Shown one piece after another: positions 2,009-54,349 of a stretch of DNA of 60,152 bases; the stretch's first letter is position 1; every line of letters begins with the position of its first letter. A program made the translations under genes and the position numbers. The notes under the pieces were generated by a model. It was given only the letters and a program-made list of their open reading frames with translations, did not search any database and was not told the origin of the DNA. The stretch comes from an uncultured Dehalococcoidales bacterium (GTDB lineage: Bacteria > Chloroflexota > Dehalococcoidia > GIF9 > AB-539-J10), in the NCBI GenBank assembly GCA_964652095.1, contig CAZZAC010000002.1, positions 1 through 60,152 of the forward strand, read 5' to 3'.

Positions 2009-2017
2009 TCGTCGTGT

Positions 2018-20047: not shown

Positions 20048-20086
20048 CTAACAGGCGACTTTGAAATCACACAATATGGACTTTAG

Positions 20087-20602: not shown

Positions 20603-20684
20603 TCAGGCAAATATATGGCTAATGCCTGTTATTAGTAAATCTAACGTTCCGCCCAAAAGTTCAAGGATGTTCATACGTACAGTA

Positions 20685-22628: not shown

Positions 22629-22777
22629 CAGGTCCTTACTTCAGTTACTCTGGTTGAAATCTAACATACGCATTTGCACCTGTCAAAAATGTTCACTCCC
22701 CAGCTATATTGTCAAATCCTTGAAGATATGTCCAACAAATCGCTAGAAAGTTCAATAAGTGTCGGCTTAGCAGCATG

Positions 22778-23784: not shown

Positions 23785-23988
23785 GCCTCCGACTCTCCTG
23801 ACTCCCTAACCATATTATAGCATCGTGTGTGTTAGTTAAGGAATTGCAAAGACTTTTACGAATCAACTGGCACTTGCGCGGAAGCGTAAGTTGAACGAAA
23901 TTCAGAAATGTTGGGGAACAACACGGGCTTTTATTGGATTTCGAACAGGTTGGATTATTCCTCATCCTTACCTAATTCTAATTCCGTA

Positions 23989-24918: not shown

Positions 24919-25002
24919 AGTAGTGTCCCCCTTTCTAACCCTGCTTAATTTCAATCATCCAAGATGCTCGGCAGCGTGCAAAACACCCTGTGGACAGAAA
25001 TA

Positions 25003-26007
25003 TCAACGGGTGAACATGTGCTTCGGCGGTTTCTCTCCAACGTGGTTCCTGAGGATGCCGATACCTTCCACCTCCAGCTCAATGACATCGCCTGGCTGAA
25101 TCCAATGGTTGAGTTCCATACCACAGCCACTCTCCACCGTCCCCGAGCCTAAGAAATCACCGGGATATAGCGTCTCCTCCATGGAAGCAAACTCAATAAT
25201 CTGAGGCCAGGTCCAGTAAGCCGTGCCGCTGTTATTATCCGACCATAACTCACCGTTGATACGGGCCATCATCCGCAGGTTCTTAGGGTCCACCTCTTCA
25301 GGGGTCACCAGGCAAGGCCCCATGATACTACAGGTGTCCTTGCCCTTAGCCGGACCGAGGCCACCTGCCAGCATCTCCTGCAACTGGATATCACGGGCAC
25401 TGATGTCGTTGAAGATAGTATAGCCAGCAATGTACTCCTCTGCTCGTTCTCTTGGGATGTTTTTGCCTTCTTTGCCAATATAGATGCCGTATTCCAACTC
25501 GTAGTCCAGCAAATCGGTGAAGGCAGGCCAGAGAATGACTTCGTCGGGACCAATGATAGTGTCAGGATTACCCTTATAGCATACCGGTATCTCATACCAG
25601 CCTTTGTCAAGCTGCCTTTTCCCTGAAAAGCTGGCATGGCCCTCGAAGGCGAGATAATCCCGAAGTGAATTCGGCCGCGGCACTGGCGCCTTCAGCTTGA
25701 CCTCACTCATCTCATATACTATCTTTTCACCCCGGGGACCAAGCAAGCTGCCTTTGACTTGGTATTTCGCCACATAGTCGAGGGTCATCTCGGCTCTGTC
25801 TTTCCCTTCATCCCCTCTTCGGAAGAAGGCAATCATGTCAGGCGGCAGGATTGCTGCGGCTAGTTCATAGGCCTGAATATTGCCATGCTTATCAGCCAGG
25901 TAGCGCGTATAGCCCATATTAAGATCGATAATCTTATTTTGGTGTATGGCTCCGATGCGTTGTACCTGGCCAACTGATGTGGGAACCCCGAAAGTCACTA
26001 GCTTCAT
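25003..26007 (-). CDS. Fumarylacetoacetate hydrolase (FAH) family protein
   Basis: FAH-family C-terminal domain pattern (YTIFNDISARD, GTVESGCG). Confidence 0.8.
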   Translation of the reverse strand: MKLVTFGVPTSVGQVQRIGAIHQNKIIDLNMGYTRYLADKHGNIQAYELAAAILPPDMIAFFRRGDEGKDRAEMTLDYVAKYQVKGSLLGPRGEKIVYEMSEVKLKAPVPRPNSLRDYLAFEGHASFSGKRQLDKGWYEIPVCYKGNPDTIIGPDEVILWPAFTDLLDYELEYGIYIGKEGKNIPRERAEEYIAGYTIFNDISARDIQLQEMLAGGLGPAKGKDTCSIMGPCLVTPEEVDPKNLRMMARINGELWSDNNSGTAYWTWPQIIEFASMEETLYPGDFLGSGTVESGCGMELNHWIQPGDVIELEVEGIGILRNHVGEKPPKHMFTR

Positions 26008-26176
26008 TCCTTCCTCCTGCCTCCTGTAGCCTCTGTATACTATCGGTTTCTCATATGGTATGTCAAGATCTCACCATGTTGTACAAACCAGGCAAGCGTG
26101 CAATCTCACTCTCAGGTATACTCTGGACCTCTGCCTGGCTGCCTGGGTACTTAGGCAGCCAGTGTGCCTGAAACCT

Positions 26177-28120
26177 TTATAAAGCCAGCCCGGTCCGGTA
26201 TCCTTCACTGGTAGCTTCCAGTATTCTCCGCGGTTCGGAAGAATTGCCTATGCAGTATATTTCAGGGACTTTACCTTCCAAAGCTTTGTATAGGCGATCA
26301 TTTGCCTTGTAGCCGACTGCTATAATGACTGTGTCGGCTGGAATGGTTTCCTTCTTACCCTCAGCAGTAGTTACCTGAACACTGCCTTCCTTTATCTCTT
26401 CACAGGTCGCGCTGGTCAGCAGGGTCACCTTTTTGCTCCTCAGCCCATCCATGAGTCGGCGTCTTGTCATGAATAACATGTCGCTAGCCATCCGTTTCAA
26501 TATTTCTATGATGGTCACCGTCTTTCCCTGTTCCGCCAGATGGTGCCCTGTCTCACAGCCGATCATCCCTCCACCGATGATGACCACATTCTGCCCGGCC
26601 CTGACTTTGCCCGAGAGCACATCCTGAGCAGTAACCACATTTGCTTTATCAATGCCAGGTATGTCAGGCATGGCTGGAGTGCCTCCTGTGGCTATCACAA
26701 CGGCATCTGGATTCCCTTCAGTAACGATTTCAGCAGTGGCATCTGTATTAAGCTTAACTTCCACTCCAGCTTTCTCAACTTGATTGACCAGATAGTCTAT
26801 CCAGGGGAAGATATCGCCCTTAAATGGAGGTAAAGCAGCTGTATTCAGTTGCCCACCCAGCTTCGCATCCTTTTCAAACAGAGTAACCTTGTGACCTCTC
26901 TGTGCCGCCACAATGGCAGCCTGCATGCCGGCCGGACCACCACCCACTACAACCACTTTTTTGGCCTTTCTCACGGGCTTAATTTGGTATGCTTTCTCCC
27001 TGCCCAGCGTGGGGTTGACGACGCAGGTGACACCCTCGCCACGTTCATCGAAGGCCAGCCGTTCAATACACTCCATACAGCCTATGCATGGGATAACTTC
27101 ATCAAGCCTTCCTTCAGCCACCTTATTGGGCAGGTCCGGGTCGGCTAAAAGACGCCTGCCTATGGCTATAAGGTCAGCTTTGCCCTCCTCGAGAATCCTC
27201 TCGCCAAGCTCGAGATCCAGTCTGCCCACTGCAATTACCGGCACGTTGGTCAGCTTCTTGACCTCTTCAGCCAGAGGTACCATAAAGCCCGGGGTATCCG
27301 AAATTGGAGCGGTGGTTATATAAGACCCCACACCATAACCCGATACGTGAAGCGCCTGAGCACCCGCCTCCACCACCAGCGGTACCATCTGTTTGGTCTC
27401 CTCAATGGTAATCCCGTTCTCCACTCCCCATTCCTGGGCATTGAACCTGACCCAAACAGGAAAATCTGGGCCTACTTCCCTTTTAATAGCCTGAAGTATC
27501 TCTACCAAAAATCTTGCCTTATTCTTAACCGAGCCACCGTATTCATCCTTGCGCTGGTTGGTAGCCGAGGAGAGAAAGGCGGCGACAATGTACTGGTGAG
27601 CACCATGAACCTCTACCCCATCAAAGCCAGCCTCCCTGGCAAGTCTGGCAGCCGAAGCAAACCACTTTACCCTTTCAGCAATTTCTTCCACAGTTAATTC
27701 ATGAGGAGGTTCTCCCGAGATACCCATAACTCTGGCGGGCACTATTACCGGGGACGGACTCACCTGCACTACCTTTCCATCCCAGTACTCCATGGTGGAA
27801 TGCATTATCTGGATAGCTATCCTGGCATTGTATTTATGAGCGGCATCCGTCAGTTTTTGCCATCCGGGAATCAACTTATCGTCTCCGAGAGATGCCTGGT
27901 GAGGCGTGGTGCATTGCAGGCTGGGAGCGCTTCCTTCGACAATAATCAATCCTACCCCACCTCTAGCCCTTGCCTCATAATAATCGAGCGTCCGCTGACC
28001 AACAGCGCCGCCTTTTTCGGCATAGTTGGTCCCCATCGGCGGCATGACTATGCGATTCTTCAGGTTCATCTGGCCTATGCTCGTTGGCTCAAAAACTTTC
28101 TTGAATCGAGTTGCAATCAT
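26177..28120 (-). CDS. Old-yellow-enzyme-type NADH:flavin oxidoreductase fused to an FAD/NAD(P)-binding domain (2,4-dienoyl-CoA reductase / enoate reductase-like)
   Basis: The N-terminal OYE TIM-barrel motifs (MPPMGTNY, HGAHQYIV) are followed by a Cys cluster (CIGCMEC) and then GGGPAG and GGGMIGCE dinucleotide folds. Confidence 0.8.
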   Translation of the reverse strand: MIATRFKKVFEPTSIGQMNLKNRIVMPPMGTNYAEKGGAVGQRTLDYYEARARGGVGLIIVEGSAPSLQCTTPHQASLGDDKLIPGWQKLTDAAHKYNARIAIQIMHSTMEYWDGKVVQVSPSPVIVPARVMGISGEPPHELTVEEIAERVKWFASAARLAREAGFDGVEVHGAHQYIVAAFLSSATNQRKDEYGGSVKNKARFLVEILQAIKREVGPDFPVWVRFNAQEWGVENGITIEETKQMVPLVVEAGAQALHVSGYGVGSYITTAPISDTPGFMVPLAEEVKKLTNVPVIAVGRLDLELGERILEEGKADLIAIGRRLLADPDLPNKVAEGRLDEVIPCIGCMECIERLAFDERGEGVTCVVNPTLGREKAYQIKPVRKAKKVVVVGGGPAGMQAAIVAAQRGHKVTLFEKDAKLGGQLNTAALPPFKGDIFPWIDYLVNQVEKAGVEVKLNTDATAEIVTEGNPDAVVIATGGTPAMPDIPGIDKANVVTAQDVLSGKVRAGQNVVIIGGGMIGCETGHHLAEQGKTVTIIEILKRMASDMLFMTRRRLMDGLRSKKVTLLTSATCEEIKEGSVQVTTAEGKKETIPADTVIIAVGYKANDRLYKALEGKVPEIYCIGNSSEPRRILEATSEGYRTGLAL

Positions 28121-28338
28121 CGCTGGCTCCTTCTTTTATTTAAAAATCGTATTCCATTTTTTCCCCAAGTTTACCACAAAACCAGAATCCGCCACCCACA
28201 CTTTTGGTCTCAATCTGCTTTTGTACAACATTATCATACCAACTTCAAAGCCCAGGTGGGGGATTTAGATAAAAGTGCAGGTAGATAATAATGCTCATTG
28301 TGATGGTGAAGAAATTTTTGATAGTTAGAAATTCCTCG

Positions 28339-28374
28339 TTTGGTGCCCTCGGCACAAATGCTATAATCTAGCTA
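28339..28374 (+). promoter_or_regulatory. Extended -10 promoter (TGcTATAAT) predicting a leaderless dnaE mRNA
   Basis: TATAAT lies at 28362-28367 with TG at 28359-28360. ATG 28375 is 7 nt downstream, and no Shine-Dalgarno lies between them. Confidence 0.35.
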
Positions 28375-31300
28375 ATGCCACAGAAGTTTGCCCACCTTCA
28401 CGTCCACACTGAGTATAGCTTGCTCGATGGCATGTGCCGCATCCCTCAGCTTATTGCCCGGACCAAAGAGTTGGGCATGGACAGCCTTGCTATCACTGAC
28501 CACGGCGCCATGTATGGCGTCATCGATTTTTATGTGGCGGCCAGGGAAGCAGGTATAAAACCAATCATTGGCTGCGAAGTCTATGTCGCCGAGACCGATT
28601 GCCATAGCCGGGAGCCAGCTCACAAAAACGCCTATCATCTTACTTTACTGGTCAAGAATGAAAAGGGCTACCGCAATTTGCTCCAACTGGTTACTAAAAG
28701 CCACCTTGAGGGATTTTACTATAAGCCCAGGGTAGATAAGGAGCTTCTCAAGCTTCATCATGACGGGCTTATTGCCCTTTCCGGGTGTGCTCATGGGGAA
28801 CTGGCTCGACTTATCCTCGAAGGGCGAAACGACGAGCTTGCCAGGGCAGCTTCATGGTACAAGGAAGTCTTCGGTGATTACTACCTGGAGATTCAAAGGC
28901 ATCCTATCCCTGAACTGGAGCAAATCAACCAGGAGCTTATTTCGCTGTCCACTAAACTCAATATACCCCCGGTAGCCACCTTTGATGTGCATTACGTTGA
29001 TAAAAAAGACGCCCCAGCCCATGAACTCCTTTTGTGTATACAGACGAATACCACTGTTTATGATGAAAAAAGGCTGAAGATGGCTGGCGATTTCTTCTAC
29101 CTGAAAAGCCCTGAAGAGGTGGAACAACTGTTTGCTGACTTACCTCAGGCTGTGGAGAATACTCAAGCCATTGCTGATATGTGTCAGCTGGAGCTGGATT
29201 TCACCAAGCTACATCTGCCGCAGGTGGAATTGCCCGAGGGCAGAAAAGCTGATGATTTCCTGGCTGAGCTCTGCTGGCAGGGCCTGGGAAAACGTTACCA
29301 GGAGCCCGGCTCAGAGGTCAAGGAACGGCTTAGCCACGAGCTTGATGTCATCCAGAAGACAAGGTTTGCCCATTACTTCCTCGTTGTTTGGGATATAATC
29401 TCCTTTACCAGAGAACGGGGCATCTATCTTGGTGTTCGGGGAAGTGCTGCTGCCAGCCTGGCTCTTTACTGTCTGGGCGTCACTGATGTAGACCCGCTAG
29501 CATATGGGCTTGTTTTCGAACGATTCCTTAATGTCGAGCGCCGCGAGCTCCCTGATATTGACCTTGATTTTCAGGACGACCGCCGTGATGAAGTCCTGGC
29601 CTACGTTAACCAGAAATATGGCTCCGACCACGTAGCTCAAATTATTACCTTTGGCACCATGGGAGCCAGAGCAGCGATAAGAGACACGGGGCGGGCTTTA
29701 GGCATGCCTTATGCTCAGGTTGATCGGGTAGCTCGACTCATTCCTCTGGAGCTGACCATAACCCTGGATAGGGCACTGGAACAGAGCAGGGAGCTTCATG
29801 ACATTTATCACCAGGATTCAGCAATACGTAACCTGATTGACTCAGCCAGGAAATTGGAGGGATTAGTCAGGCACGCCAGCACCCATGCCGCCGGTGTGGT
29901 TATAGCGCATGAGCCCTTAATCGAATATGTGCCACTACAACTGCTGGGAAAGGGTGAGCAGCGCACTGTCATGACTCAGTTCCACATGGGGAACATCGCC
30001 CGCCTGGGACTGTTAAAAATGGATTTCCTGGGACTATCTAATTTGACCATCCTGGCCAAAGTTAAAGAAATTATTGCCCAAAATCGTGGAATCTCCCTGG
30101 ATTTGCAGCATATTCCTCTCGACGATGCCAGGACCTTTGAGTTGCTTGCCTCGGGGGAAACTAAAGGCATCTTCCAACTGGAAAGCTCAGGGATGCGCCG
30201 CTATATCAAGGAGCTCAAGCCCACTAACTTTAGCGATATCGCGGCTATGGTGGCGCTCTATCGCCCTGGCCCCATGGAACAAATTCCCACTTTTATCAGG
30301 GCCAAGCAGGGTGTTGCCCCTATTCATTATCCCCATCCCATTCTAAAAGAGATTCTAGAAGAAACCTACGGAGTTATCGTTTATCAGGAGCAGGTAATAT
30401 TTATCGCCCAAGCTCTAGCCGGCTATAGCCTGGGTCAGGCTGACATTTTTCGTAAAGCTATGGGTAAAAAGATACCTGCGGTGATGAAGAAAGAGGAGCG
30501 CAATTTCATCGCCGGAGCTAAAAAAAATGGCATACCGCCGGAATTAGCTCAGGAGGTATTTTCCCTAATCGAGCCTTTCGCCGGTTACGCTTTCAACAAA
30601 GCCCACAGCGTTAGCTATGGCCTCATTGCTTACCGCACTGCCTATCTTAAGGCAAACTACCCCATTGAGTACATGGTGGCCTTGCTCGACACTTATTCGG
30701 ATAATATGGACAAGGTCCGTTCGGCGATTGCTGAATGCCGGAGGTTGGGCATCAAAGTGCTCCCACCGGACATTAGTAAGAGCCATGCTAGCTTCGCCAT
30801 TGAGAAGGATGATGAAAATAATCCCGCCATCCGCTTTGGACTGGCTTCTATTAAAAATGTCGGCTTTTCCCCAATTGAGCACATCTTGTCTGGTCGGGAC
30901 TCAGGGGGCGATTTTAAGTCCATAGAAGACTTCTGCTATCGAGCCGCCCTTCGTAACATCAATAAGAAAGTATTAGAAAGCTTGATTAAAGTTGGTGCCT
31001 TTGACTCCCTGGGCAGCCGTAAGGCGCTACTCGAGTCTCTGAATAAAATTATCTCCCTGGCTCAAACGAAACAAAGAGCAAAGGAATCGGGACAAGTTAG
31101 CATGTTTGATTTATGGGGTCAAAGCTCCCCCACCCCTCGTGTTGGTTACCCCCAAGTTGAGGAAGAGGTATCCGCCAAGCAAAAACTTATCTGGGAAAGA
31201 GAGCTGCTAGGGGTTTATTTCTCCCAGCCCCTTGACTTCCTCGCCAGGGAACCATCTTCAACAGGAGTTATTTCCTGCGGTGAAATCAATATGGACATGG

Positions 31301-36709: not shown

Positions 36710-36710
36710 T

Positions 36711-42332: not shown

Positions 42333-43022
42333 TTACTTGCGTTTCTTAAGTGTAATCTCCATCCAAATATCTGTTAGCGCCATCTGGTAGTTGCCTTTGA
42401 ATGTCGTTTGCTCTAGCATACCCTTGATTATGGTCTGGTATTCTTCCCAGGTGAAACCATGCAGTGTAGAGACCCTGTGTCCAAGTCGGCCAACGAAGAA
42501 CCCGTATTCCTTGTTCAGTTTTCTTCTATCAGCCCGATTGCTGAAAACCTCAGGACATCCATCGTATATCCAGGCTTCTTTGCCGGTTTTTAGAACGCGA
42601 TAGCATTCATCAAACACCAGGCGCGGTGTCTTCCAATGGTGCGAAGCGCCCGTACTAATCACAACGTCTATCGAATTATCCTTGAAAGGGAGTTTGGCCG
42701 CATTGCCAAACACAAATCGAGCATTATCAACGCCTTTGGCATGGCGTCTGGCAATCTTGACCATTTGCCTGCTGAGATCGATGCCATAGACCTGCAGGCT
42801 GGGTGACTTCTTGGCAATCTCTATTGACAAATAGCCTGTTCCCGAACCCAAATCAAGAATAGTTCCCTTTCCCATCTGTGCCACTATGTTATTAGCTATC
42901 TTTGTTTCAGGCTTTCGAAGAACTTTTGCCACTGTCGCATTGTAGAATATGGCACCAGGGGTTGGGATTGATTCAGGTTTCCTCAGTAAATCCTTGATGA
43001 ATCTTGTTAGAGACATGGTCAT
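42333..43022 (-). CDS. Class I SAM-dependent methyltransferase
   Basis: ILDLGSGTGYLS (motif I) is present, with UbiE/COQ5-like architecture. Confidence 0.8.
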   Translation of the reverse strand: MTMSLTRFIKDLLRKPESIPTPGAIFYNATVAKVLRKPETKIANNIVAQMGKGTILDLGSGTGYLSIEIAKKSPSLQVYGIDLSRQMVKIARRHAKGVDNARFVFGNAAKLPFKDNSIDVVISTGASHHWKTPRLVFDECYRVLKTGKEAWIYDGCPEVFSNRADRRKLNKEYGFFVGRLGHRVSTLHGFTWEEYQTIIKGMLEQTTFKGNYQMALTDIWMEITLKKRK

Positions 43023-43026
43023 TCCT

Positions 43027-43090
43027 CATATTCCGGGGACATAATACCTAATTTGCAGTAGGCCTAATTGGCATGGCGCCCCTAGAATTC
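43027..43090 (+). repeat. 64-nt hairpin repeat (family 1), copy D (most diverged)
   Basis: catattccggggacataatacctaatttgcagtaggcctaattggcatggcgcccctagaattc. It fills the 71-nt gap between the Vms1-like gene stop and the methyltransferase start. Confidence 0.85.
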
Positions 43091-43093
43091 CCG

Positions 43094-43858
43094 CTAAGAG
43101 TTATCCGCGCACCATTCGATAACATCGGTTGACCAGACAGTGCCCACGGCTTTTTCCAGTACCGCCTGGCGTGGCTCCCGTATATCCAGCAGCGTCCGCA
43201 GGATGCGGTCGTCAAATTGGCTCAGGAACGGGCACCGTTTGCGCAGTGAGAGGATGGTAGTCCTTGCTCCGCCATAGACCAGATAGTCGAGTGACCGGGC
43301 ATGGGGCTCGATATTCTCCCGCACGTGACCGCAAACCCGGCCCAGAAACTGCTCTATTTGCTTTTCCCGGTGTCGGGCAAACCGCGCCTGCGAGGAGCCA
43401 CCCTTTTTGTGGCGGGCGTGCACCAGGCCTGTTCCCGTCTTGCTATCTATGAACTCTGTGCCCCGGCAGATGCCAATACTGTATGCTCCCAGGCGGACCA
43501 GAACCAGAGCGATAAGGAAGTCGTGACTGATAAGAGAACACAACGGTCCAACATCATAGCCGTCGGTGATATATTCTTCGGCAATCGGGAATGGTGGCAG
43601 GACCAGATACGTTTGCAGCGGGCTCCAGAAAAACGCCGCTCCCATTCTCGAGCCGGCAATAGCCTCAGCCACGCCTGGCGGTATGGCAGTTGCGGCAAAC
43701 ACCTTTCCCAGCAGATTTTCCACTCTGGCTTGAGGCATCCCCCGTGGGAGATATAACGACATCGCCTTGCCTTCAGTCGAAGCCAGCTCGTCCAGAAAGC
43801 TGAGCGCCTTCGACCTGCCGAGACGGAATCTCTTCGATACAAACATAATATCAATCAC
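43094..43858 (-). CDS. Vms1/ANKZF1-like peptidyl-tRNA hydrolase (acVLRF1-type eRF1-fold release factor)
   Basis: The motif HARHKKGGSSQARFARHRE (GGSSQ encoded at 43388-43402) matches the GxxQ catalytic loop of the VLRF1 family. The length is about 250 aa. The gene lies 22 nt downstream of mutS2. Confidence 0.7.
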   Translation of the reverse strand: MIDIMFVSKRFRLGRSKALSFLDELASTEGKAMSLYLPRGMPQARVENLLGKVFAATAIPPGVAEAIAGSRMGAAFFWSPLQTYLVLPPFPIAEEYITDGYDVGPLCSLISHDFLIALVLVRLGAYSIGICRGTEFIDSKTGTGLVHARHKKGGSSQARFARHREKQIEQFLGRVCGHVRENIEPHARSLDYLVYGGARTTILSLRKRCPFLSQFDDRILRTLLDIREPRQAVLEKAVGTVWSTDVIEWCADNS

Positions 43859-43880
43859 CCGGCCGAATGAAATACTCTGG

Positions 43881-46268
43881 CTACATGCTGACTATGGTAA
43901 CGCCGTCACCACCCTCGCCCTGCTCCCCGGGCTGGAAAGACGTGACCAGCGGGTGAGAGGCCAGAATCTCCCTGACAATCTGACGCACGGTGCCCGTGCC
44001 GATACCGTGAATGATGCGGACCCGGCTCAAGCCGCATAAAGACGCTTCGTTAAGGTAGCCTTCCAGCGCCGGCTCGACCTCCTCAGCCCTCTTTCCCCGC
44101 AGGTCAAGCTCGAGAGAGACCCTGGACTTGCGCATCTCACTCCTTATCAGGGCGCTGCCCGTCTTCACCACGCCAGTTGATGGTATCCTCTTTTCCACGC
44201 TGTCCAGCCTGAGGGTCATCTTCACTTTCCCGGCATAGACTTCGACGAGCCCGCGTTCCTCAGACACTGATAGTACCGTAGCCGACACGCCAGCCTCTTT
44301 CAGCCAGACGGTATCACCGGCGGTGATTGGGCCTGTCCCGACTTCTGTTTCGTCTATCCCAACCGCCGGTCTGGCTTGCCATACCCCAGTATCTAACTGT
44401 TCCTGTGCCTCGGCTAGTGCCTTTTTCGCCTGCTCGATTCTTCCCCGCGATTTTTCCTTGCGCAATTCCGCTGCTGCCTCGCGAATTTTCATCTGTAATT
44501 CGGCAGCCTCGCAACCTATCCGGTCACGGGTCTCCTTGACGATTCTTCGTTTGTCCTCCTCCAACTGGCGGAGCCTGTTTCTCAAGTCCGCGTCGCTCTG
44601 TTCTGCCTCATTCAGTTCCTTCTCCAGGCTGTGGCGAAGCGACTCAACATTCTTCTGCTCGGTCACCAGATGGGTAAGCAAAGATTCAATCTCCTGGGCG
44701 CCTTGGGAAAGCATGTGCCGGGCGCGGGCCACAATCTCCGCAGGCAGTCCCAGACGAGATGCTGTAGCCAGAGCATTGCTGCCGCCCGGGATACCCACTG
44801 TCAGGTGATAGGTGGGCGCCATCGTAACGGGGTCCACATCCAGAGCCGCGTTTTCCACGCCGTCGGTAGCGTGAGCCAGTGCCTTTAATTCGGTGTAGTG
44901 AGTGGTGGCTACGGTCATCGTTCCCTGTGGTAAGAAATGGAGCAGGATAGCGCGGCCGAGAGCCGAGCCTTCGCCCGGGTCAGTGTTGGTGCCCAGTTCG
45001 TCTAACAGCACCAGGCTCTGTGCCGTGGCGTTGTTGATGATGCGCACGATGTTGCCTATGTGCCAGCTGAAGGTAGAAAGGGTCTGCTCGATGCTCTGCT
45101 CATCACCGATGTCGGCATATACGCCGTCATAAACGGGGATGCGGCTTTCCGCCTGAGCCGGAATGGGCAAGCCAGCCTGCGCCATCAGGCTGAGAAGTCC
45201 TATCGTCTTGAGGGCGACCGTCTTGCCACCGGTATTGGGCCCGGTGATGACCAGGACGGAGAAGTTCCGGCCAATCTCGACCGACAGCGGCACTGCCTTC
45301 TTTTTCAGCAGCGGATGTCTGGCTTCGACCAGCCTGAGCACTCCGGCCGGTTCATGTCCCTCTGACTTAGCATTTCTACCAGCGGCCACGATAATAGGCT
45401 CGGTGGCTTTGGCTTCTCTGGCGTATCTGGCCTTAGCCAGCGCCAGGTCAATCTCAGCAATCAGCTCAATGTCACGGGAAATTTCGCTTTCGAATGCTCC
45501 GACTTCAGCACTGAGCATTCTCAGTATCCTTTCTATTTCGTCCTTCTCTTCGGCACCCAGCTCGCGCAGTTCATTCTGCACGTCTGTAGTGGTCCATGGC
45601 TCAATAAATACCGTAGCCTCGGTATTGGAGACGTCGTGGACAATGCCCTTTATCTGCCGGCGACATTCCACCTTGACGGGAATTACATACCGGCCTTCCC
45701 GCTCGGTCACAATGGGATCCTGGATTATTTTCCGCCATCTGGGTGAGGTGATTATGGCTTGCAGGTGAGTGAGCAATTCCTGGCGCACTTCTCGCATTCT
45801 ATGCCTCACCGACGCCAGTTTATGTGAGGCGGTATCCAAAAGGTCGCCGGTCGGACTCAAGCAGCCATCAATATCCTTTTGAAGCTGGGCCAGTGTCACA
45901 ATGTCATTGGCCAGACCACTGAGTAACGGGAGTTCACCCGGCATGTTCACCAGGTGGCTTCTTAGCCTGTGGGCAGCGCCCAGCGTCTTTTGAATTTCCA
46001 ACAAAGATTGAGGGTCCAGGATTTTGCCGCGTGTCGCCATCTTCACCACTTCCCGGATATCAACAACTTCGCCGATATGGGTATCTGGACTGAGTGACAG
46101 CAAACGGCGTGCCTCAGCCGACTGCCTGAGCCGCAGGCGGACTTCTTCTTCATCCGAGAGAGGAGTGAGGTCGAGGGCCAGCTCTCGGCTGGCGGAAAAT
46201 GAAGTGAAGCCGGCTAGTATCTCCCTCATCTTGTGAAATTCCAGCAGTTCTAAATCGCTGTCGCCCAA
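43881..46268 (-). CDS. mutS2: MutS2 (endonuclease/ATPase with C-terminal Smr domain)
   Basis: 795 aa, with the MutS ATPase Walker A GPNTGGKT, a long coiled coil and a C-terminal Smr domain (LDLRGKRAEE...RIIHGIGTGTVR). Confidence 0.9.
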   Translation of the reverse strand: MGDSDLELLEFHKMREILAGFTSFSASRELALDLTPLSDEEEVRLRLRQSAEARRLLSLSPDTHIGEVVDIREVVKMATRGKILDPQSLLEIQKTLGAAHRLRSHLVNMPGELPLLSGLANDIVTLAQLQKDIDGCLSPTGDLLDTASHKLASVRHRMREVRQELLTHLQAIITSPRWRKIIQDPIVTEREGRYVIPVKVECRRQIKGIVHDVSNTEATVFIEPWTTTDVQNELRELGAEEKDEIERILRMLSAEVGAFESEISRDIELIAEIDLALAKARYAREAKATEPIIVAAGRNAKSEGHEPAGVLRLVEARHPLLKKKAVPLSVEIGRNFSVLVITGPNTGGKTVALKTIGLLSLMAQAGLPIPAQAESRIPVYDGVYADIGDEQSIEQTLSTFSWHIGNIVRIINNATAQSLVLLDELGTNTDPGEGSALGRAILLHFLPQGTMTVATTHYTELKALAHATDGVENAALDVDPVTMAPTYHLTVGIPGGSNALATASRLGLPAEIVARARHMLSQGAQEIESLLTHLVTEQKNVESLRHSLEKELNEAEQSDADLRNRLRQLEEDKRRIVKETRDRIGCEAAELQMKIREAAAELRKEKSRGRIEQAKKALAEAQEQLDTGVWQARPAVGIDETEVGTGPITAGDTVWLKEAGVSATVLSVSEERGLVEVYAGKVKMTLRLDSVEKRIPSTGVVKTGSALIRSEMRKSRVSLELDLRGKRAEEVEPALEGYLNEASLCGLSRVRIIHGIGTGTVRQIVREILASHPLVTSFQPGEQGEGGDGVTIVSM

Positions 46269-46413
46269 GGTAACCTTCCCGAGTCGCCTATACTCTCATC
46301 GCCATATTAATAATCATCGAATAGTATAAAGCAATCACCCCAGTTTTCAAAAAATCGGCTTCTCCAGCCAGGGGCGGACGAGATTACTTACGTCGTTTTA
46401 AAGAGGGTTCCAA

Positions 46414-46477
46414 GGTATTCTGGGGACATAATGCCTGATTTATGATAGGCTTAATTGGTATGGTGTCACTGGAATTC
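46414..46477 (+). repeat. 64-nt hairpin repeat (family 1), copy E
   Basis: ggtattctggggacataatgcctgatttatgataggcttaattggtatggtgtcactggaattc. It sits in the divergent promoter region between mutS2 and the AMP-ligase gene. Confidence 0.9.
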
Positions 46478-46479
46478 CA

Positions 46480-46509
46480 TTGACAGGAAATAGGAAATTG
46501 GCTCATAAT
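46480..46509 (+). promoter_or_regulatory. Sigma-70-type promoter of the AMP-ligase gene
   Basis: TTGACA (46480-46485), an 18-nt spacer, then CATAAT (46504-46509). The ATG lies at 46548 after GGGAGAG. The -35 hexamer starts 3 nt after repeat E. Confidence 0.5.
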
Positions 46510-46547
46510 CCTACTTCAAAAAACTCGTCAAGTCTTCGGGAGAGACA

Positions 46548-48041
46548 ATGAATCTCAAGCAGATGCTAGAAAGAACTGCCAGCGAGGTGCCACAGAATAT
46601 GGCTATCGTCCTTGGCTCTCGCAGGGTTAGCTACCGCGAATTGGATGAAACTTCTAACAGGATAGCCAACGCCCTTATAAGTCTAGGAACAAAGAAGGGC
46701 GACCACGTAGCCATTCTAATGTCTCGTACCCCTGAGTGGGTCATCAATTGTTTTGGAGTGCTTAAAGCTGGAGCTGTGGGCGTGCTCCTCGATGCCGGAG
46801 CTAAGGCGCCCGAACTTGAGCCTCTACTCCGTGAAACTGATTCCAAAATCCTGATTACCGAAGAAAGATTCTCCCCCATGCTGTCTTCAATTTTGCCCAA
46901 TATCCCCCTGCTGAAACAGGTTCCTGCAATTGGTACAGACCCTTACAATAGGATGGTGGCCAGCAGTTCCCCTGCATCACCCTCTGTCGATATAAAGGAC
47001 GAGGATGAAGCTATCGTTTTTTGCACCCTGGGCGTGCTGGGGAAGAACAAGGGCATAGTGCATACTCACGCGTCGTTCATGTCAATTTTGCCCATAGCGG
47101 TGGCAAAATTTGAACTGGAGAGAGACGATGTTATTTTGGGTATGCTACCTTTTAACAACCTTCTGGGATTTGGATTAGTCATTCTCCTGCCCGTTAAGAC
47201 GGGAGCCACCATAGCAATCCTCCCTCATTTCAGTTCCAAGAATATACTGGAGACTGTAGAGCAGGAAAAGGCAACCATGCTTATAGGCGTCCCGGCTAGC
47301 TTTAATGCCATGGCTATGATAGACGAAGAGACCATTAAGAGCTATGACCTTAGTTCGTTAAGGGCGGTGCTTTCTGCCGGAGCAAAATCCTCAGCCCTTT
47401 TTATGGGGATTCTTGAGAAAAAGTTTGGCTTAACTGCGTGCGAAATATATGGGCTCACGGAGTTGATAATCGTTACTCTGGGTGCTATTCGTGACCGCAA
47501 ATTGGGTACGGCGGGGAAACCCCTGGCTGAGCTCAGAGTGCTGGATAAAAACGGCAAGGAAGTACCCCGGGGCAGCGTAGGGGAAGCTGTTGCCCGAGCC
47601 CCCTGGATGATGAAAGAATATTACAAGTCGCCTGAACTCACGGCCCGGGTCCTCAAAGATGGTTGGTTTCATACTGGCGACCTGGTCAAGTTGGATGAGG
47701 ACGGCTACCTGGAGTTCATAGAAAAGACATCATCTATCATAGTGCCCTCGGGGGGAGTTAAGATTCTCCCCGCGGCAGTTGAAGAAGTTCTCCTGAGGCA
47801 CCCCGCGGTAGCCGAAACAGCCTGTGTCGGTGTCCTTGATGATTACAAAGGGCAAATACCCACAGCTTTTATAGTGCTTAAGGAAGGACAAAGTGCTACG
47901 GTGGACGAAATACGCGATTTTTGTCGCCGGAGCTTATCTGATTATAAAGTGCCCAAGCAAATCAAGTTTGTTGACAGCATGCCTAGAACCGGGTCGGGCC
48001 AAATAGACCGGAGACGACTCAGCGGGACAAAGGAAAGCTGA
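46548..48041 (+). CDS. AMP-dependent synthetase/ligase (acyl-CoA synthetase family)
   Basis: ANL superfamily architecture (YGLTE, GWFHTGD, C-terminal ..YKVPK..). Confidence 0.8.
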   Translation: MNLKQMLERTASEVPQNMAIVLGSRRVSYRELDETSNRIANALISLGTKKGDHVAILMSRTPEWVINCFGVLKAGAVGVLLDAGAKAPELEPLLRETDSKILITEERFSPMLSSILPNIPLLKQVPAIGTDPYNRMVASSSPASPSVDIKDEDEAIVFCTLGVLGKNKGIVHTHASFMSILPIAVAKFELERDDVILGMLPFNNLLGFGLVILLPVKTGATIAILPHFSSKNILETVEQEKATMLIGVPASFNAMAMIDEETIKSYDLSSLRAVLSAGAKSSALFMGILEKKFGLTACEIYGLTELIIVTLGAIRDRKLGTAGKPLAELRVLDKNGKEVPRGSVGEAVARAPWMMKEYYKSPELTARVLKDGWFHTGDLVKLDEDGYLEFIEKTSSIIVPSGGVKILPAAVEEVLLRHPAVAETACVGVLDDYKGQIPTAFIVLKEGQSATVDEIRDFCRRSLSDYKVPKQIKFVDSMPRTGSGQIDRRRLSGTKES

Positions 48042-48089
48042 AAAGAAGAACTAAAACGGCCGATCAGGCTGTTTTGCGGTGTCCAGCAC

Positions 48090-48153
48090 GGTGTTCTGGG
48101 GACATAATACCTGATTTGTAGTAGGCCTAATTGGTATGGTGTCCCTGGAATTC
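48090..48153 (+). repeat. 64-nt hairpin repeat (family 1), copy F
   Basis: ggtgttctggggacataatacctgatttgtagtaggcctaattggtatggtgtccctggaattc. Confidence 0.95.
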
Positions 48154-48346
48154 ACACTAGAGACAGGAAAATGCTACACTATAATAGAATAAAGCTGTAG
48201 GCGGGTGGTACTCGGAACTATCAAATGTCCCATAATTCCGCGAAAAATGCAGCAGTTTTGTGCACTTTGCCTAACCAGTGGCTGCTGTTGAAACCCGTGT
48301 TACGCCATTACTATTAATTGAATATAGACAATAAGGAGACACTGAT

Positions 48347-48832
48347 ATGCCAGAGTTAGGTTTAGGCGTCCCTTTCTGGGTAATCGTTTTAATATGGTTA
48401 GCTAAGGTCGTGTTGCTGGTCTTCATCTCTGCTCTTTTGGCATGGCTCGGAGTCAGAGCGCTGGATGCGATTATCCGTCAGGTCCCTTATCGCGAGCGCA
48501 TAGGCGAGAGCCCGGTGGCTGTCGGGTTGTTCACGGCAGGCTTCTTCATCCTGATTGGTCTTGTTATCCACGGCGCTATTACCGCACTCACTGCGGTCAC
48601 AGCTCCAATAGTGTGGTACATCTTCGACTTCAGGACGTGGGGGTTACTGGCTATGAGCTTTGCGATAAGCTTACTTCTTGGAGTAGCCCTATTCTATATC
48701 GTGGACAAGCTAACGCCCAAAATACCGTTTGCCAGTATTAACGAAAGCCCGGTGGCGGCAGGGCTACATGTCTCTGGTTATCTCATCTTCTTTGGCTTAA
48801 TACTCCATGCGGCACTGACCGGACCATTATGA
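48347..48832 (+). CDS. Small multi-TM membrane protein (DUF350-like, two internal halves)
   Basis: 161 aa with four hydrophobic helices and two similar halves (SPVAVGLFTAGFFILIGLVIHGAI / SPVAAGLHVSGYLIFFGLILHAAL). GGAG RBS is present. The family call is tentative. Confidence 0.5.
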   Translation: MPELGLGVPFWVIVLIWLAKVVLLVFISALLAWLGVRALDAIIRQVPYRERIGESPVAVGLFTAGFFILIGLVIHGAITALTAVTAPIVWYIFDFRTWGLLAMSFAISLLLGVALFYIVDKLTPKIPFASINESPVAAGLHVSGYLIFFGLILHAALTGPL

Positions 48833-49698
48833 AGACAGCTCGGGTTTTACTAAGTTTAATAGTTGTCTTATTAGCTGGGGTGGCGACTGCTGGTTATGCC
48901 TCGGCATTTTCATCTGCAGGTTTGCCCGAGAGAGATGGAGATACTTTTGATGATTGGGAGATATGCAGGACCAGGGCCTTCAGTGAAGACGGCTTTTATC
49001 AAATAACTGAGACAGGGTCTCATGAAATAGCGTTTCGTCCGGTCATAGCCTTCCAGAGCCTGGGGGAAAATGCTGACCTAGCCTACAGCCTGGGTGAGCA
49101 AATTGCCGCCAAATATCCAGACCCGCTACAGAGGGCAGAGGCGGTATTTCATTTTGTCCGTGACAGGGTGGAATATACCCCTGATATAGAGCAAACTGGA
49201 AATGAAGAGTTTGCCCAGAATGCCGACGAGCTGGCGATGACTATTGTCGAGGATGGAAGTGGGGAGGGTGATTGTGAAGATATGACGGTATTACTGGCGG
49301 TTATGTATAAAGCTGCCGGATTTCGCTCAGCTATAGTGCTTCCCTCAGGGCACACTGCGGTATTGGTTTATCTACCTGAATATAACGAGGCAACGGTTTT
49401 CTTTGAGCTGGAAGGTGAGCCAGGATGGATCTGGGCCGAGGCTACTGGCAGAAACAACCCGCTGGGTTGGGCGCCCGAGCAGTATCTTGATATGGAAATA
49501 CCTGCCTATGAAATTTTTGCCGAGATACCTGCCTACGAAATACCTTCCGAAGGAGTAGCTCCATTAACACCACCTCCCGCCGCGGAGATAGCGGTCGCCG
49601 GAATCGCAGGGGGAGTCACCTACCGACCGTATCTTTTTTTCATCGTAATTGGTCTATTGTGGTGTATGTCGTTGTTCGGACGGAAGCGAAGGCGTTGA
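48829..49698 (+). CDS. Secreted/anchored transglutaminase-like cysteine protease-fold protein
   Basis: An N-terminal signal, GEGDCEDMTVLLAVMYKAAGF ... SGHTAVLV (Cys/His of the transglutaminase-like core) and a C-terminal TM helix are present. There is an internal 27-nt-period duplication (EIPAYEI twice, 49495-49541). ATGA overlaps the upstream gene. Confidence 0.6.
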   Translation: MKTARVLLSLIVVLLAGVATAGYASAFSSAGLPERDGDTFDDWEICRTRAFSEDGFYQITETGSHEIAFRPVIAFQSLGENADLAYSLGEQIAAKYPDPLQRAEAVFHFVRDRVEYTPDIEQTGNEEFAQNADELAMTIVEDGSGEGDCEDMTVLLAVMYKAAGFRSAIVLPSGHTAVLVYLPEYNEATVFFELEGEPGWIWAEATGRNNPLGWAPEQYLDMEIPAYEIFAEIPAYEIPSEGVAPLTPPPAAEIAVAGIAGGVTYRPYLFFIVIGLLWCMSLFGRKRRR

Positions 49699-49728
49699 GC
49701 CAAGCCCCTGTATGCGTCGCCAGTGATC

Positions 49729-49798
49729 GGTATTCCGGGGACATAATACCTGATTTGTAGCAGGCCTAATTGGTATGGTGTCCCTGAAATTACCAATT
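49729..49798 (+). repeat. Hairpin repeat (family 1), copy G, variant 3' end (ccctgaaattaccaattc)
   Basis: ggtattccggggacataatacctgatttgtagcaggcctaattggtatggtgtccctgaaattaccaattc. It has the same variant 3' end as copy J. Confidence 0.9.
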
Positions 49799-49809
49799 CC
49801 GAAGACCCT

Positions 49810-49827
49810 GTACTAACGTCTTAGTAC
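49810..49827. promoter_or_regulatory. Perfect palindrome GTACTAA-cgtc-TTAGTAC upstream of the sRNA promoter (operator candidate)
   Basis: The 7-bp arms end 10 nt before the -35 hexamer. The site is identical in the second copy (53884-53901). Confidence 0.35.
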
Positions 49828-49837
49828 GTATGGGGAC

Positions 49838-49867
49838 TTGACAACTGGTCTATATATGTGCTAGTAT
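49838..49867 (+). promoter_or_regulatory. Sigma-70-type promoter with extended -10 (TTGACA-N18-TGcTAGTAT)
   Basis: TTGACA at 49838-49843, TG at 49859-49860 and TAGTAT at 49862-49867. The region is 100% identical in copy 2. Confidence 0.5.
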
Positions 49868-49873
49868 TAACAT

Positions 49874-50024
49874 TGTCCCGAGTAGCCGAGCAGGGACCTG
49901 GCATGAGAGTTGGGTTTGGTGAAAGCTGAAAGGTGCAGGTAGTGGCCAGCACAAGGTAAGCTGAAGGCCAGGCCGGACTATGGCAGGTGAAGAAAGTGAG
50001 GTTACTCGGGGCGTCTTATTTTTT
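49874..50024 (+). ncRNA. Candidate structured sRNA of about 150 nt, copy 1, family unknown
   Basis: It starts about 7 nt after the -10 hexamer. A 13-bp closing helix forms between GUCCCGAGUAGCC (49875-49887) and GGUUACUCGGGGC (50000-50012), followed by GUCUUAUUUUUU. There is no conserved ORF and no downstream + strand gene. Confidence 0.45.
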
Positions 50025-50060
50025 GCTGGCTAAGCGTCCTTGTCACAGTTTGAAATGACC

Positions 50061-50100
50061 CAATAAATAGGCTTGATACTTGCGTGGATATCAGCCTATT
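50061..50100 (-). terminator. Hairpin plus U-rich tail on the minus strand, downstream of the NAD(P)H-binding gene
   Basis: The minus strand reads AAUAGGCUGAUA-UCCACGCAAG-UAUCAAGCCUAUU followed by UAUUGGG. Confidence 0.4.
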
Positions 50101-50148
50101 CAAGTTTGACTCTTAACCAAAGTTCACCATCTACGCCTTTGATTTCGT

Positions 50149-50212
50149 GGTATTCTGGGGACATAATACCTGATTTGTAGTAGGCCTAATTGGGACGGTG
50201 TCCCTGGAATTC
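50149..50212 (+). repeat. 64-nt hairpin repeat (family 1), copy H
   Basis: ggtattctggggacataatacctgatttgtagtaggcctaattgggacggtgtccctggaattc. Its last 2 nt are part of the TGA stop of the 50211-50852 gene. Confidence 0.95.
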
Positions 50213-50852
50213 AGTAAGCGACAGTGAATCGTTCGCGAATGTGTTGCGGATGCTCAAGTTCATCGAGCATGGCAACGGCGTAGTCCTGCGTGGAGATTTT
50301 GCTTTCGCCTTCTTTGTTCTTAAGAAGTTGGTCTTTCCCAACCCGGTAATGCCCCGTCCGCTCTCCGGGGGCGATCGAGGATGGTGGACACAAGAATGTC
50401 CACTCAAGTTCATTTTCTTTCTTTAGCATGTAAAGTGTTTCCCTGGTTGCCAGTACTCCTTTTTTCACCTGCTCCGGGAAACTCACCGTATCAATGAGCT
50501 GCACGCCGGGGGCGACTTCAAGAGTTCCAGCCCCGCCGACAACCAGCAATCTTTTGATTCCCGACTTCTTGACCCCGCTGATAATCGCCTTATAACCCTT
50601 GATTTGCTCATTGTAGATATCTGGATTGCTCCAGCCGGGATTGTAGGCACTCATGACCGCGTCATGACCTTTCACGAGTTCGTCGACCTTATCTTTAAGA
50701 ATGTCCGCTTTCACAACGGTAAGACGTGGGTTCTGCACAGTTATCTTCTCAGGATGGCGCACAATCGCAGTTACCTGATGACCCCGCGCCAGTGCTTCAT
50801 CGCGAATGAATGCTCCAATCTGTCCGCTTGCTCCGATGATTGCTACTCTCAT
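50211..50852 (-). CDS. NAD(P)H-binding (NmrA/atypical SDR-like) protein
   Basis: MRVAIIGASGQIG is a Rossmann motif. 213 aa. Confidence 0.75.
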   Translation of the reverse strand: MRVAIIGASGQIGAFIRDEALARGHQVTAIVRHPEKITVQNPRLTVVKADILKDKVDELVKGHDAVMSAYNPGWSNPDIYNEQIKGYKAIISGVKKSGIKRLLVVGGAGTLEVAPGVQLIDTVSFPEQVKKGVLATRETLYMLKKENELEWTFLCPPSSIAPGERTGHYRVGKDQLLKNKEGESKISTQDYAVAMLDELEHPQHIRERFTVAY

Positions 50853-50915
50853 AAATGTAACCTCCCTTTATGCTTTCAAAGTTATTTCCCATCCCTCGCT
50901 TCTGGTGCTTCGCCC

Positions 50916-51560
50916 TTAGGTCAGACTGAAGAGAGGATACCGATCCGTTGTCAACAAAAAAGCGTATGCAGCTACTCTCAGCGACCATTGGTATACACCA
51001 GCTATGAAGTCAAATAAACCTCTAGGATAGCGACCAGTAAACAAGATGGCAAACCAGGCTATCACCACGCAGACGAAGGCTGCAATCCCCAAGAAGGCCA
51101 GGATGATGTAGTGTGGGATAGCTAGAAACCATTTCACTAGTGGTAACCAACGGTTAAGGTCTTTCGGGACGTCTGGATATGGGATCTCAAGGTGAACCGC
51201 CTGCTCTTCGTCAGTTGACGGGTATACATCTGTAAGCAGACTAATATAAGTGGCAACACGTATGCCGAACTTGGTCAATGCTATATTCCAATCAAACCAC
51301 CACTTGGGATACTTTTGCCGGAAAAGGATCATGAGTACGATTGGCAGAAACAAGGTACCTCCCGCAGTATATAGCCAGGTCCAACCATTCATTCCACTCC
51401 AATCAAAGTTCCCACCACTTACCAAGACCAGAATAATAGCGATTGGAATTACTGTGAAGATCCTGAAGAACGTGGTTAACCGATTAAGAGATCTGTCCGG
51501 GTAATCGATTGTTAAAGTGGCGGGATACGCGGGCGGGGTCGGCGACGCTTTTGTTGTCAT
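50916..51560 (-). CDS. DUF4389 domain-containing membrane protein
   Basis: LNRLTTFFRIFTVIPIAII and AWFAILFTGRYPRGLFDF are characteristic of the family. Confidence 0.7.
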   Translation of the reverse strand: MTTKASPTPPAYPATLTIDYPDRSLNRLTTFFRIFTVIPIAIILVLVSGGNFDWSGMNGWTWLYTAGGTLFLPIVLMILFRQKYPKWWFDWNIALTKFGIRVATYISLLTDVYPSTDEEQAVHLEIPYPDVPKDLNRWLPLVKWFLAIPHYIILAFLGIAAFVCVVIAWFAILFTGRYPRGLFDFIAGVYQWSLRVAAYAFLLTTDRYPLFSLT

Positions 51561-53710: not shown

Positions 53711-53803
53711 TAACGATTACCCTTCTCCTTAAGACAGTACAAGCCCGGTCGACAACCAGCGTCTTAAAGGAAAAACTACTGAATGATATCATAGACTACA
53801 CCT

Positions 53804-53873
53804 GGTATTCTGGGACATAATACCTGATTTGTAGTAGGCCTGATTGGTATGGTGTCCCTGAAATTACCAATTC
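53804..53873 (+). repeat. Hairpin repeat (family 1), copy J, variant 3' end
   Basis: ggtattctgggacataatacctgatttgtagtaggcctgattggtatggtgtccctgaaattaccaattc, with a 1-nt deletion in the 5' arm. Confidence 0.9.
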
Positions 53874-53883
53874 CGAAGACCCT

Positions 53884-53901
53884 GTACTAACGTCTTAGTA
53901 C
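53884..53901. promoter_or_regulatory. Palindrome GTACTAA-cgtc-TTAGTAC (operator candidate), copy 2
   Basis: Identical to 49810-49827. Confidence 0.35.
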
Positions 53902-53911
53902 GTATGGGGAC

Positions 53912-53941
53912 TTGACAACTGGTCTATATATGTGCTAGTAT
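53912..53941 (+). promoter_or_regulatory. Promoter with extended -10, copy 2
   Basis: Identical to 49838-49867. Confidence 0.5.
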
Positions 53942-53947
53942 TAACAT

Positions 53948-54098
53948 TGTCCCGAGTAGCCGAGCAGGAACCTGGCATAAGAGTTGGGTTTGGTGGAAGC
54001 TTAAAGGTGCAGGTAGTGGCCAGCACAAGGTAAGCTGAGGGCCAGGCCGGACGATAGCAGGTGAAGTAAGTGAGGTTACTCGGGGCGTCTGATTTTTT
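53948..54098 (+). ncRNA. Candidate structured sRNA, copy 2
   Basis: It differs from copy 1 by 9 substitutions, all outside the three helices I propose. The closing helix and U-tract are the same. Confidence 0.45.
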
Positions 54099-54134
54099 GC
54101 TGGCTAAGCATCCCTGTCGCAGCTTGAAATGACC

Positions 54135-54174
54135 CAATAAATAGGCTTGATACTTGCGTGGATATCAGCCTATT
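54135..54174 (-). terminator. Minus-strand hairpin plus U-rich tail downstream of the Lpd-like gene
   Basis: Identical to the hairpin at 50061-50100. Confidence 0.4.
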
Positions 54175-54222
54175 CAAGTTTGACTCTTAACCACAGTTCA
54201 CCATCTACGCCTTTGATTCCGT

Positions 54223-54286
54223 GGTATTCTGGGGATATAATACCTGATTTGTAGTAGGCCTAATTGATATGGTGTCCCTGGAATTC
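54223..54286 (+). repeat. 64-nt hairpin repeat (family 1), copy K
   Basis: ggtattctggggatataatacctgatttgtagtaggcctaattgatatggtgtccctggaattc. Confidence 0.95.
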
Positions 54287-54349
54287 TGATGATAACCAAA
54301 TCATATGCATCTTTCATTGACCACCTCCAAGACCCATTATATTGCGAAT

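Follow-up and report, generated by a model that had tools for sequence, protein, structure and literature searches.

The locus analyzed here raises the question of what is encoded by two nearly identical segments of a 60,152-nt stretch of DNA from an uncultured Dehalococcoidales bacterium (GenBank assembly GCA_964652095.1, contig CAZZAC010000002.1; the whole stretch is referred to as the window). A first-pass annotation made from the sequence had proposed that both segments, located on the + strand at 49874-50024 and 53948-54098, correspond to a stand-alone structured RNA of about 150 nt. This proposal was supported by the analysis carried out, because a transcript is seen, the family is conserved, the pairing is kept and the fold belongs to the + strand, with a mature RNA of about 138 nt. 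The pair of copies was also borne out, with exactly 9 mismatches over 151 nt, and searches with nhmmer and a covariance model revealed only these two copies inside the window.

The promoter first described, TTGACA-N18-TAGTAT with a TG extension, is present on the + strand at 49838-49867 (TTGACA at 49838-49843, an 18-nt spacer and the TG-extended TAGTAT at 49862-49867) and, in identical form, at 53912-53941. It matches the consensus at 10 of 12 positions, is kept in all homologues and is a strong promoter of the sigma-70 type. The identity claimed for the promoter region extends over an upstream stretch of about 85 nt that is the same in both window copies. In the soil metatranscriptome X30, the promoter had a sequencing depth of 0, the RNA body one of 1,800-4,500 and the stretch from the downstream spacer to the repeat that borders it one of 70-120, and in the marine sediment run X28 the values for promoter, RNA and downstream DNA were 0, 25-50 and 13-26, respectively. 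Runs X46, X48, X51 and one more were mapped on the commonest variant of the family, L055. The RNA reached a depth of 17,000-29,000 in X51, a 277-Mb sediment metatranscriptome, with 0 in both flanks, and 50-470 in X46 and X48, also with flanks at 0. The depth in X51 corresponds, as an order of magnitude, to about 1% of all bases, and the downstream DNA showed 0-5% of the RNA depth in X30 and X51. The two copies are independent genes, each producing a very abundant and very stable RNA.

With nucleotide 1 of the RNA set at 49874, Illumina adapters in X46, X48 and X51 begin directly after position 139, where the terminal helix P1 ends; this final base of P1 is thus the mature 3' end, the U tail being removed to leave about 138 nt. 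Of the RNA ends initially placed near 49874 and 50024, the first agrees with the start predicted from the promoter geometry (49874-49875), but the mature 3' end is at 50012. The mature RNA thus spans 49875-50012 in copy 1, as delimited by fold, consensus, expression and 3' end, with the 5' end predicted from the promoter, and 53949-54086 in copy 2. The U-rich tail occupies 50013-50024 in copy 1 (GUCUUAUUUUUU), where it was located by the drop in depth and by the adapters that abut position 139, and 54087-54098 in copy 2, by sequence comparison. At this tail depth falls 20- to 40-fold in X30 and to 0 in X46, X48 and X51. P1 and the U-rich tail act as an intrinsic terminator, and the tail is trimmed from the mature RNA.

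At the other end, inserts begin in four independent RNA-seq runs at RNA positions 13-16 (window 49886-49889; L055:11959-11961), where P1 meets the basal loop, which leaves the initial 13-15 nt of the RNA uncovered. These insert starts are read as a reverse-transcription stop or as the common loss of 5' ends, and real processing could also be their cause. Some contigs of X51 run on after L055:12082-12084 (positions 137-139) with a non-templated A-rich sequence (AAAAACCGAAAAACCGCG), and this extension may reflect heteropolymeric tailing of the RNA.

Folding of both copies, a check suggested in the first-pass annotation, gave a result far better than chance, with each 151-nt copy forming one long hairpin or single rod (-71.4 kcal/mol and z = -6.9 for copy 1; -67.9 kcal/mol and z = -7.0 for copy 2, whose covariance-model score is 176.6 bits). 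The 138-nt core (49875-50012) has a folding energy of -69.9 kcal/mol (z = -9.65) on the + strand and of -38.9 kcal/mol (z = -3.0) on the complement; the fold depends on G.U pairs, so the structure is a property of the + strand RNA and not of the DNA. From the base upwards, the rod consists of the G+C-rich 13-bp terminal helix P1 (49875-49887 with 50000-50012; nt 2-14 with 127-139), a tandem G15.A126/A16.G125 followed by the pairs G17-U124 and C18-G123 (49888-49891 with 49996-49999), an asymmetric purine loop AGGG/GAAGGAA (49892-49895/49989-49995; A19-G22/G116-A122), P2 (49896-49900 with 49984-49988; nt 23-27 with 111-115) with a loose loop above it, the G.U-rich P3 (49908-49920 with 49967-49979; nt 35-47 with 94-106), P4, in which AGCU pairs with AGCU (49924-49927 with 49959-49962), and P5 with a small apical loop (49933-49940 with 49945-49952), all on the + strand. 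Pairs take up about 85 of the 138 nt, and the loops measure 7-8 nt at most. The consensus obtained with RNAalifold from 81 sequences contains, between the basal stack and P3, a zone of 18 x 18 nt with 2 pairs only. In single-sequence folds the invariant P2 (3-5 bp) sits inside this loose zone, which lies near the base and is not central.

Two parts of the RNA are the most conserved. One is the basal module formed by P1, the tandem G.A/A.G, the two following pairs and the asymmetric purine loop, and the other is a pseudo-symmetric upper module in which GAA-AGCU-GAAAG is paired with GUA-AGCU-GAAGG. Variation is greatest at the apex, in P5 and its loop.

The helices drawn in the first-pass annotation fared unequally. 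The 13-bp terminal helix followed by a U-rich tail corresponds to P1 and was confirmed, but the two inner helices (49897-49903 with 49934-49939 and 49943-49950 with 49960-49970) appear in neither the minimum-energy nor the consensus fold. Both inner helices can be formed on paper and agree with the alignment (91.9% paired), being alternatives made from the same complementary words; in 12 homologues, however, a fold in which they are imposed is 13-34 kcal/mol worse, and this penalty is largest for divergent homologues, in which P3 and P5 turn into perfect helices. It had also been stated that all 9 differences between the copies fall outside helices. This holds for 7 of the 9, which avoid every pair of the rod, but the other 2 touch pairs, both of them in two weak pairs that are not kept by the RNA family.

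About 100 distinct homologues were found in Dehalococcoidia MAGs and sediment metagenomes. A scan for exact 20-mers, with one genome per species, yielded 13 true homologues, all from Dehalococcoidia/Chloroflexota MAGs, the remaining matches being due to chance in coding DNA of G+C-rich genomes, and a scan of JGI metagenomes gave 101 stretches. The exact 20-mer of the family did not occur in any Dehalococcoides genome of the species-representative collection. The covariance model, built from 81 distinct sequences, gave 120 matches in 705 kb of homologous loci, including divergent paralogues missed by the word search. Contigs of sufficient length mostly hold 2-3 copies separated by 0.4-9 kb.

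Standard pairs occupy 94.8% of the tested pair positions in 105 distinct sequences, a value that falls to 27-40% when partners are slid by 1-3 columns, and column shuffles reached the observed pairing measures in 0-9 of 500 cases. Both sides have changed at 8 pairs, including G9-C132 to A-U in P1 and several in P5, the G.U pairs of P3 vary one side at a time, and in one lineage P2 shows paired 1-nt deletions on both strands that keep the register. This pairing test is supportive and not rigorous, since the sequences are close (mean identity about 88%), the model itself guided the alignment and a family member was the source of the structure. When mutual information was calculated for all column pairs, the top pairs were lineage markers of paralogue groups and not base pairs.

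Palindromic repeats and hairpins are common in the intergenic regions concerned, so the hairpin could in principle be an element acting at the DNA level, or a terminator or insulator, that is transcribed by chance and has no function as RNA. This explanation is barely credible in view of the dedicated and conserved strong promoter with its regulator-like site, the strand-specific, G.U-dependent stability, the diverged paralogues that still pair and the enormous steady-state level. A trans-acting sRNA that regulates mRNAs by base pairing through one of the purine-rich loops would explain the stand-alone gene with its own promoter and terminator, and also the several paralogues, which are found in many regulatory sRNA families. 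Such a role is nevertheless improbable: with about 85 of 138 nt paired and loops of at most 7-8 nt little single strand is offered, the apical loop, usual site of the seed, is the most variable part, and about 1% of a community transcriptome far exceeds the level of typical pairing sRNAs.

Concerning known RNA classes, the Rfam check proposed in the first-pass annotation revealed no Rfam 15 family, either in the window at gathering thresholds or at the locus and 12 homologous loci at E <= 10. At gathering thresholds, 149 kb of related loci contained one tRNA only, and ARAGORN found no tRNA and no tmRNA. The RNA sequence strings were not found in the searchable literature. As had been noticed, no gene on the + strand follows either copy; the homologues likewise have no same-strand gene after the RNA, and the downstream genes are mostly convergent across loci. 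A riboswitch or 5' leader was rejected, because transcription ends at the U tract and there is no same-strand gene downstream that the RNA could lead.

Small (4.5S) SRP RNA and Y RNAs are also abundant hairpins with paired termini, and the conserved protein site of Y RNAs lies in the basal stem. However, SRP RNA carries its motif at the apex, the most variable part of the RNA described here; SRP RNA was discarded because there was no Rfam match and the likeness of the apex to domain IV is lost in homologues. For Y RNA there was likewise no Rfam match, no Ro/Rsr gene was seen among the neighbours, and no TROVE protein was present among the window proteins and the recurrent neighbour proteins that were annotated, which are a part of the neighbours. 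Considered as a CsrB/Rsm-type sponge, the RNA was found to hold 1-3 GGA motifs, all in internal loops. Mimicry of a Shine-Dalgarno/CsrA site by the main loop was also discarded, as its GGA is not conserved and is missing in both window copies, which read GAAGAAAG and GAAGUAAG.

The statement that no ORF is conserved between the copies was correct as regards coding sequence, although short ORFs do occur in both. A frame of 33 codons on the - strand (50002-50103) is present in both copies, but its substitutions are distributed 47/52/50 across codon positions, internal stops interrupt it in 9 of 31 unique sequences and frameshifts in 9 of 46. This frame is therefore non-coding, which excludes a small toxin gene and with it a type I toxin-antitoxin pair. 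On the + strand, indels in the homologous loci L001 and L021 disrupt a GUG frame of 20-23 codons.

The RNA is only one part of the duplicated DNA. The duplicated unit is about 490 nt long (49730-50222 and 53804-54296, about 96% identity), is bounded by repeats and is larger than the RNA alone. Within it, each RNA gene lies in a cassette of about 420 nt bounded by a high-copy REP-like palindrome. The order of the unit is a palindromic repeat of about 65 nt, a 15-nt spacer, an 18-bp palindrome, a 10-nt spacer, the promoter, the RNA, the U-rich tail, a spacer of about 123 nt and again the same palindromic repeat. Cassette 1 is bordered by + strand repeats at 49728-49794 (79 bits with the nhmmer repeat profile) and 50148-50214 (80 bits), and cassette 2 by those located with the same profile at 53803-53869 and 54222-54288. 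In most homologues the left repeat is at -145 to -80 from the RNA start and the right repeat at +275 to +341.

The non-coding spacer that follows the RNA, designated dn, extends over about 123 nt at 50025-50147 in copy 1, with a hairpin at about 50066-50100, and at 54099-54221 in copy 2, as located by sequence comparison. It is present in most of 95 homologous units, and the 18 units without it are also without the right-hand repeat. Most homologues keep the nucleotide sequence of the spacer, and some copies lack it or have it truncated; its hairpin (AATAGGCTTGATA...TATCAGCCTATT) shows at least one compensatory change, in L015. Possibly the dn spacer is an insulator or terminator block, and it may serve to protect the RNA gene against convergent transcription.

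A third copy of the RNA was found about 2.1 kb past the right end of the window, on the - strand at L125:7326-7477 (about 62,270-62,421 in window numbering). It has the same repeat, palindrome and promoter and carries G in place of A19, and part of its spacer has been lost in a deletion that brings spacer and repeat together at a TAGGC microhomology. Another homologous locus, L043, contains a perfect 420-nt tandem of the cassette.

The REP-like palindrome (GGTATTCTGGGGACATAATACCTGATTTGTAGTAGGCCTAATTGGTATGGTGTCCCTGGAATTC, about 65 nt) was found by the repeat profile search in 12 copies between 36710 and 60091 of the window, where it separates almost all genes or operons; these copies start at 36710, 39566, 42256, 43029, 46413, 48089, 49728, 50148, 51643, 53803, 54222 and 60026. 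All of them are on the + strand, and the first 1-36 kb contain none. In metagenomes the depth of the palindrome is 50-80 times that of unique flanks, and its stem shows compensatory changes among relatives. When the region 42333-51560 of the window was compared with the related loci L007, L014, L015 and L018, gene order and orientation around the RNA cassettes differed, and the same relatives carry the same genes, with proteins 76-89% identical. The REP-like repeats may be recombination points. An integron cassette array was rejected, because no integrase was found, the RYYYAAC/GTTRRRY (attC) cores are absent from the repeat sequence and the repeats separate core housekeeping genes (DnaE, arg, MutS2, sugar and redox enzymes) on both strands.

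The architecture of the unit also suggests that the RNA might serve a selfish REP-bounded cassette, either as antitoxin to a product of the spacer or as guide of a recombinase at the repeats. Direct copies of a high-copy palindrome form the borders, duplications are tandem as well as dispersed, position varies among close relatives and all parts of the unit, the non-coding spacer included, are more conserved than the neighbour genes. This possibility was considered quite improbable, however, as the 33-codon minus-strand frame of the spacer is not coding, 18 of 95 units persist without spacer and right-hand repeat, no recombinase or transposase gene is linked and the family is absent from viral contigs, in which the covariance model gave no match and the 20-mer scan a single match due to chance.

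The 18-bp palindrome GTACTA-N6-TAGTAC (GTACTAACGTCTTAGTAC) is located 10 bp upstream of the -35 box, at 49810-49827 in copy 1 and, as an exact match, at 53884-53901 in copy 2. Its exact form occurs in the window at both RNA promoters only, and elsewhere it precedes nearly every RNA copy, divergent paralogues included. On sequence grounds it looks like a putative regulator site and points to a dedicated dimeric regulator. Genes for Rsm/Csr sponge sRNAs are preceded by the GacA box, an 18-bp palindromic activating site. In a scheme of this kind, the RNA would be a sponge or scaffold for a protein other than RNA polymerase, for example a dimeric RNA-binding global regulator with Rsm/Csr-like logic; a response regulator bound at the palindrome would activate the copies, and the (G)AAGG/GAAAG loops and the AAGCUGAA element would titrate the protein. 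RsmX/Y/Z and CsrB/C are comparable in being RNAs of 110-140 nt with several paralogous genes, repeated purine motifs and high levels. Multiple, clustered copies that are in tandem in L043, the 6-N6-6 palindrome before almost all of them, five or six similar purine-rich loops, the two-fold symmetric AGCU module kept in divergent homologues and the very high abundance are all consistent with such a sponge. It is considered rather unlikely, since the GGA motifs are few and that of the main loop is not conserved, the motifs lie in the internal loops of one rod, unlike the multiple hairpin loops of the known sponges, and no candidate partner gene is linked. Any given neighbour gene is shared by at most 15 of 97 loci.

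The shape of the RNA bears more directly on its function. The conserved surfaces of the rod are internal loops, and hardly any single strand is left free, which suggests protein binding rather than pairing with mRNA. The RNA may act as a protein-sequestering RNA, possibly as a compact 6S-like decoy for RNA polymerase, and this reading is tentatively ranked first on account of the rod, the loose zone, the position of AGCU and the published data on 6S stems, 6S copy number and Dehalococcoides mccartyi. Of the abundant RNAs known in bacteria, 6S RNA alone combines a rod shape and paired termini with imperfect arms and a loose inner zone. The abundant 6S RNAs form rods that open into a central bubble, their terminal stem is dispensable, and a 78-nt 6S core still binds the polymerase and templates product RNA (PMC8876501). 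Genomes can contain 2-4 copies of 6S, sometimes in tandem (PMC7726162). The 6S RNA (ssrS; RF00013) resembles the RNA described here as an abundant stand-alone rod with a sigma-70-type promoter, paired ends, possible multiple copies and slow-growing hosts. The rod fold with an end-paired terminal stem and a loop-interrupted apical stem is found in both, together with the very high abundance.

In the mechanism proposed, the partner would be the RNA polymerase holoenzyme, for which the RNA would imitate an open promoter in compact form. The loosely paired nucleotides 19-36/105-122 would represent the bubble, the basal stack of 17 steps would be the downstream helix and template a short product RNA, and the AGCU module, about 30 nt higher, would provide a -35-like contact. 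The RNA would thus be equivalent to a 6S RNA minus its dispensable outer terminal stem, and its dose in slow-growing sediment cells would depend on the multiple gene copies and on the palindromic regulator site, which lies about 56 bp before the start.

Several observations argue against this 6S-like role. No Rfam 6S model matched even at E <= 10. Described 6S RNAs measure about 200 nt (PMC8876501) or 183 bp on average (PMC7726162), and the usual range of about 180-200 nt compares with about 138 nt for the RNA of the window, which is shorter than described 6S RNAs and falls outside a length range of 150-200 nt. The open zone is small, cut by P2 and close to the base; no stable alternative hairpin of the 3' strand that could drive release is evident; at least 3 near-identical copies, each with a palindromic site, recall Rsm/Csr sponge genes equally; and a 6S homologue resembling that of D. 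mccartyi may exist separately in the same genomes. As to the missing Rfam match, the putative 6S RNA of D. mccartyi and two other abundant sRNAs of this organism also have no Rfam family (PMC12961961), so a 6S role is still compatible with the Rfam result. These D. mccartyi CBDB1 sRNAs (sRNA1-3) stem from a member of the same bacterial class and are abundant, monocistronic and intergenic, with sigma-70-type promoters and predicted hairpins; sRNA1, proposed as 6S, has 188 nt (PMC12961961). Actinobacterial Ms1 RNA is a 6S-like rod that standard 6S models miss and that binds RNA polymerase (PMC9130861). Ms1 differs, however, in its length of about 300 nt and in binding the core enzyme, and homology to the present RNA is not evident.

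A somewhat doubtful alternative, set against the 6S analogy, is that the RNA is one half of an undescribed and very abundant ribonucleoprotein of sediment Dehalococcoidia. The two-fold symmetric AAGCUGAA element and the conserved basal module would then meet a dedicated, probably dimeric protein, and the RNA gene would be spread by the REP-bounded cassette and controlled by its own palindrome-binding regulator.

Whatever the partner, the RNA family is new, with no Rfam match, and the nearest published objects, judged from their description, are the three D. mccartyi sRNAs. Its kind is familiar, that of a stand-alone, abundant bacterial regulatory RNA, and its natural abundance, copy number and repeat-bounded cassettes are unusual. 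Dehalococcoidia are among the commonest bacteria of the subsurface, of cold seeps and of marine and estuarine sediments, and hardly any have been cultured. The RNA is among their most abundant transcripts (on the order of 1% of bases in one community metatranscriptome), but RNA databases do not contain it. Should it be a decoy of the 6S type, it would give direct access to the throttling of transcription in slow-growing cells and fill the missing 6S model of this class; if it binds another protein, it would mark an unknown major regulatory complex. A covariance model of the family would make it possible to recognise and quantify this RNA in metatranscriptome studies, where its reads otherwise stay unassigned.

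Further observations concern the genes around the cassettes. On the - strand of the window (43094-46268), a gene for a peptidyl-tRNA hydrolase/release factor of the acVLRF1 type adjoins MutS2 with an Smr domain, and the same pairing occurs in L015 and L018, so that it looks like a conserved ribosome-rescue gene pair. The region that adjoins the third RNA copy (L125:950-9649) encodes HicB, two HEPN/nucleotidyltransferase pairs, a Fic protein and the primary sigma factor (Sigma70 regions 1.2-4).
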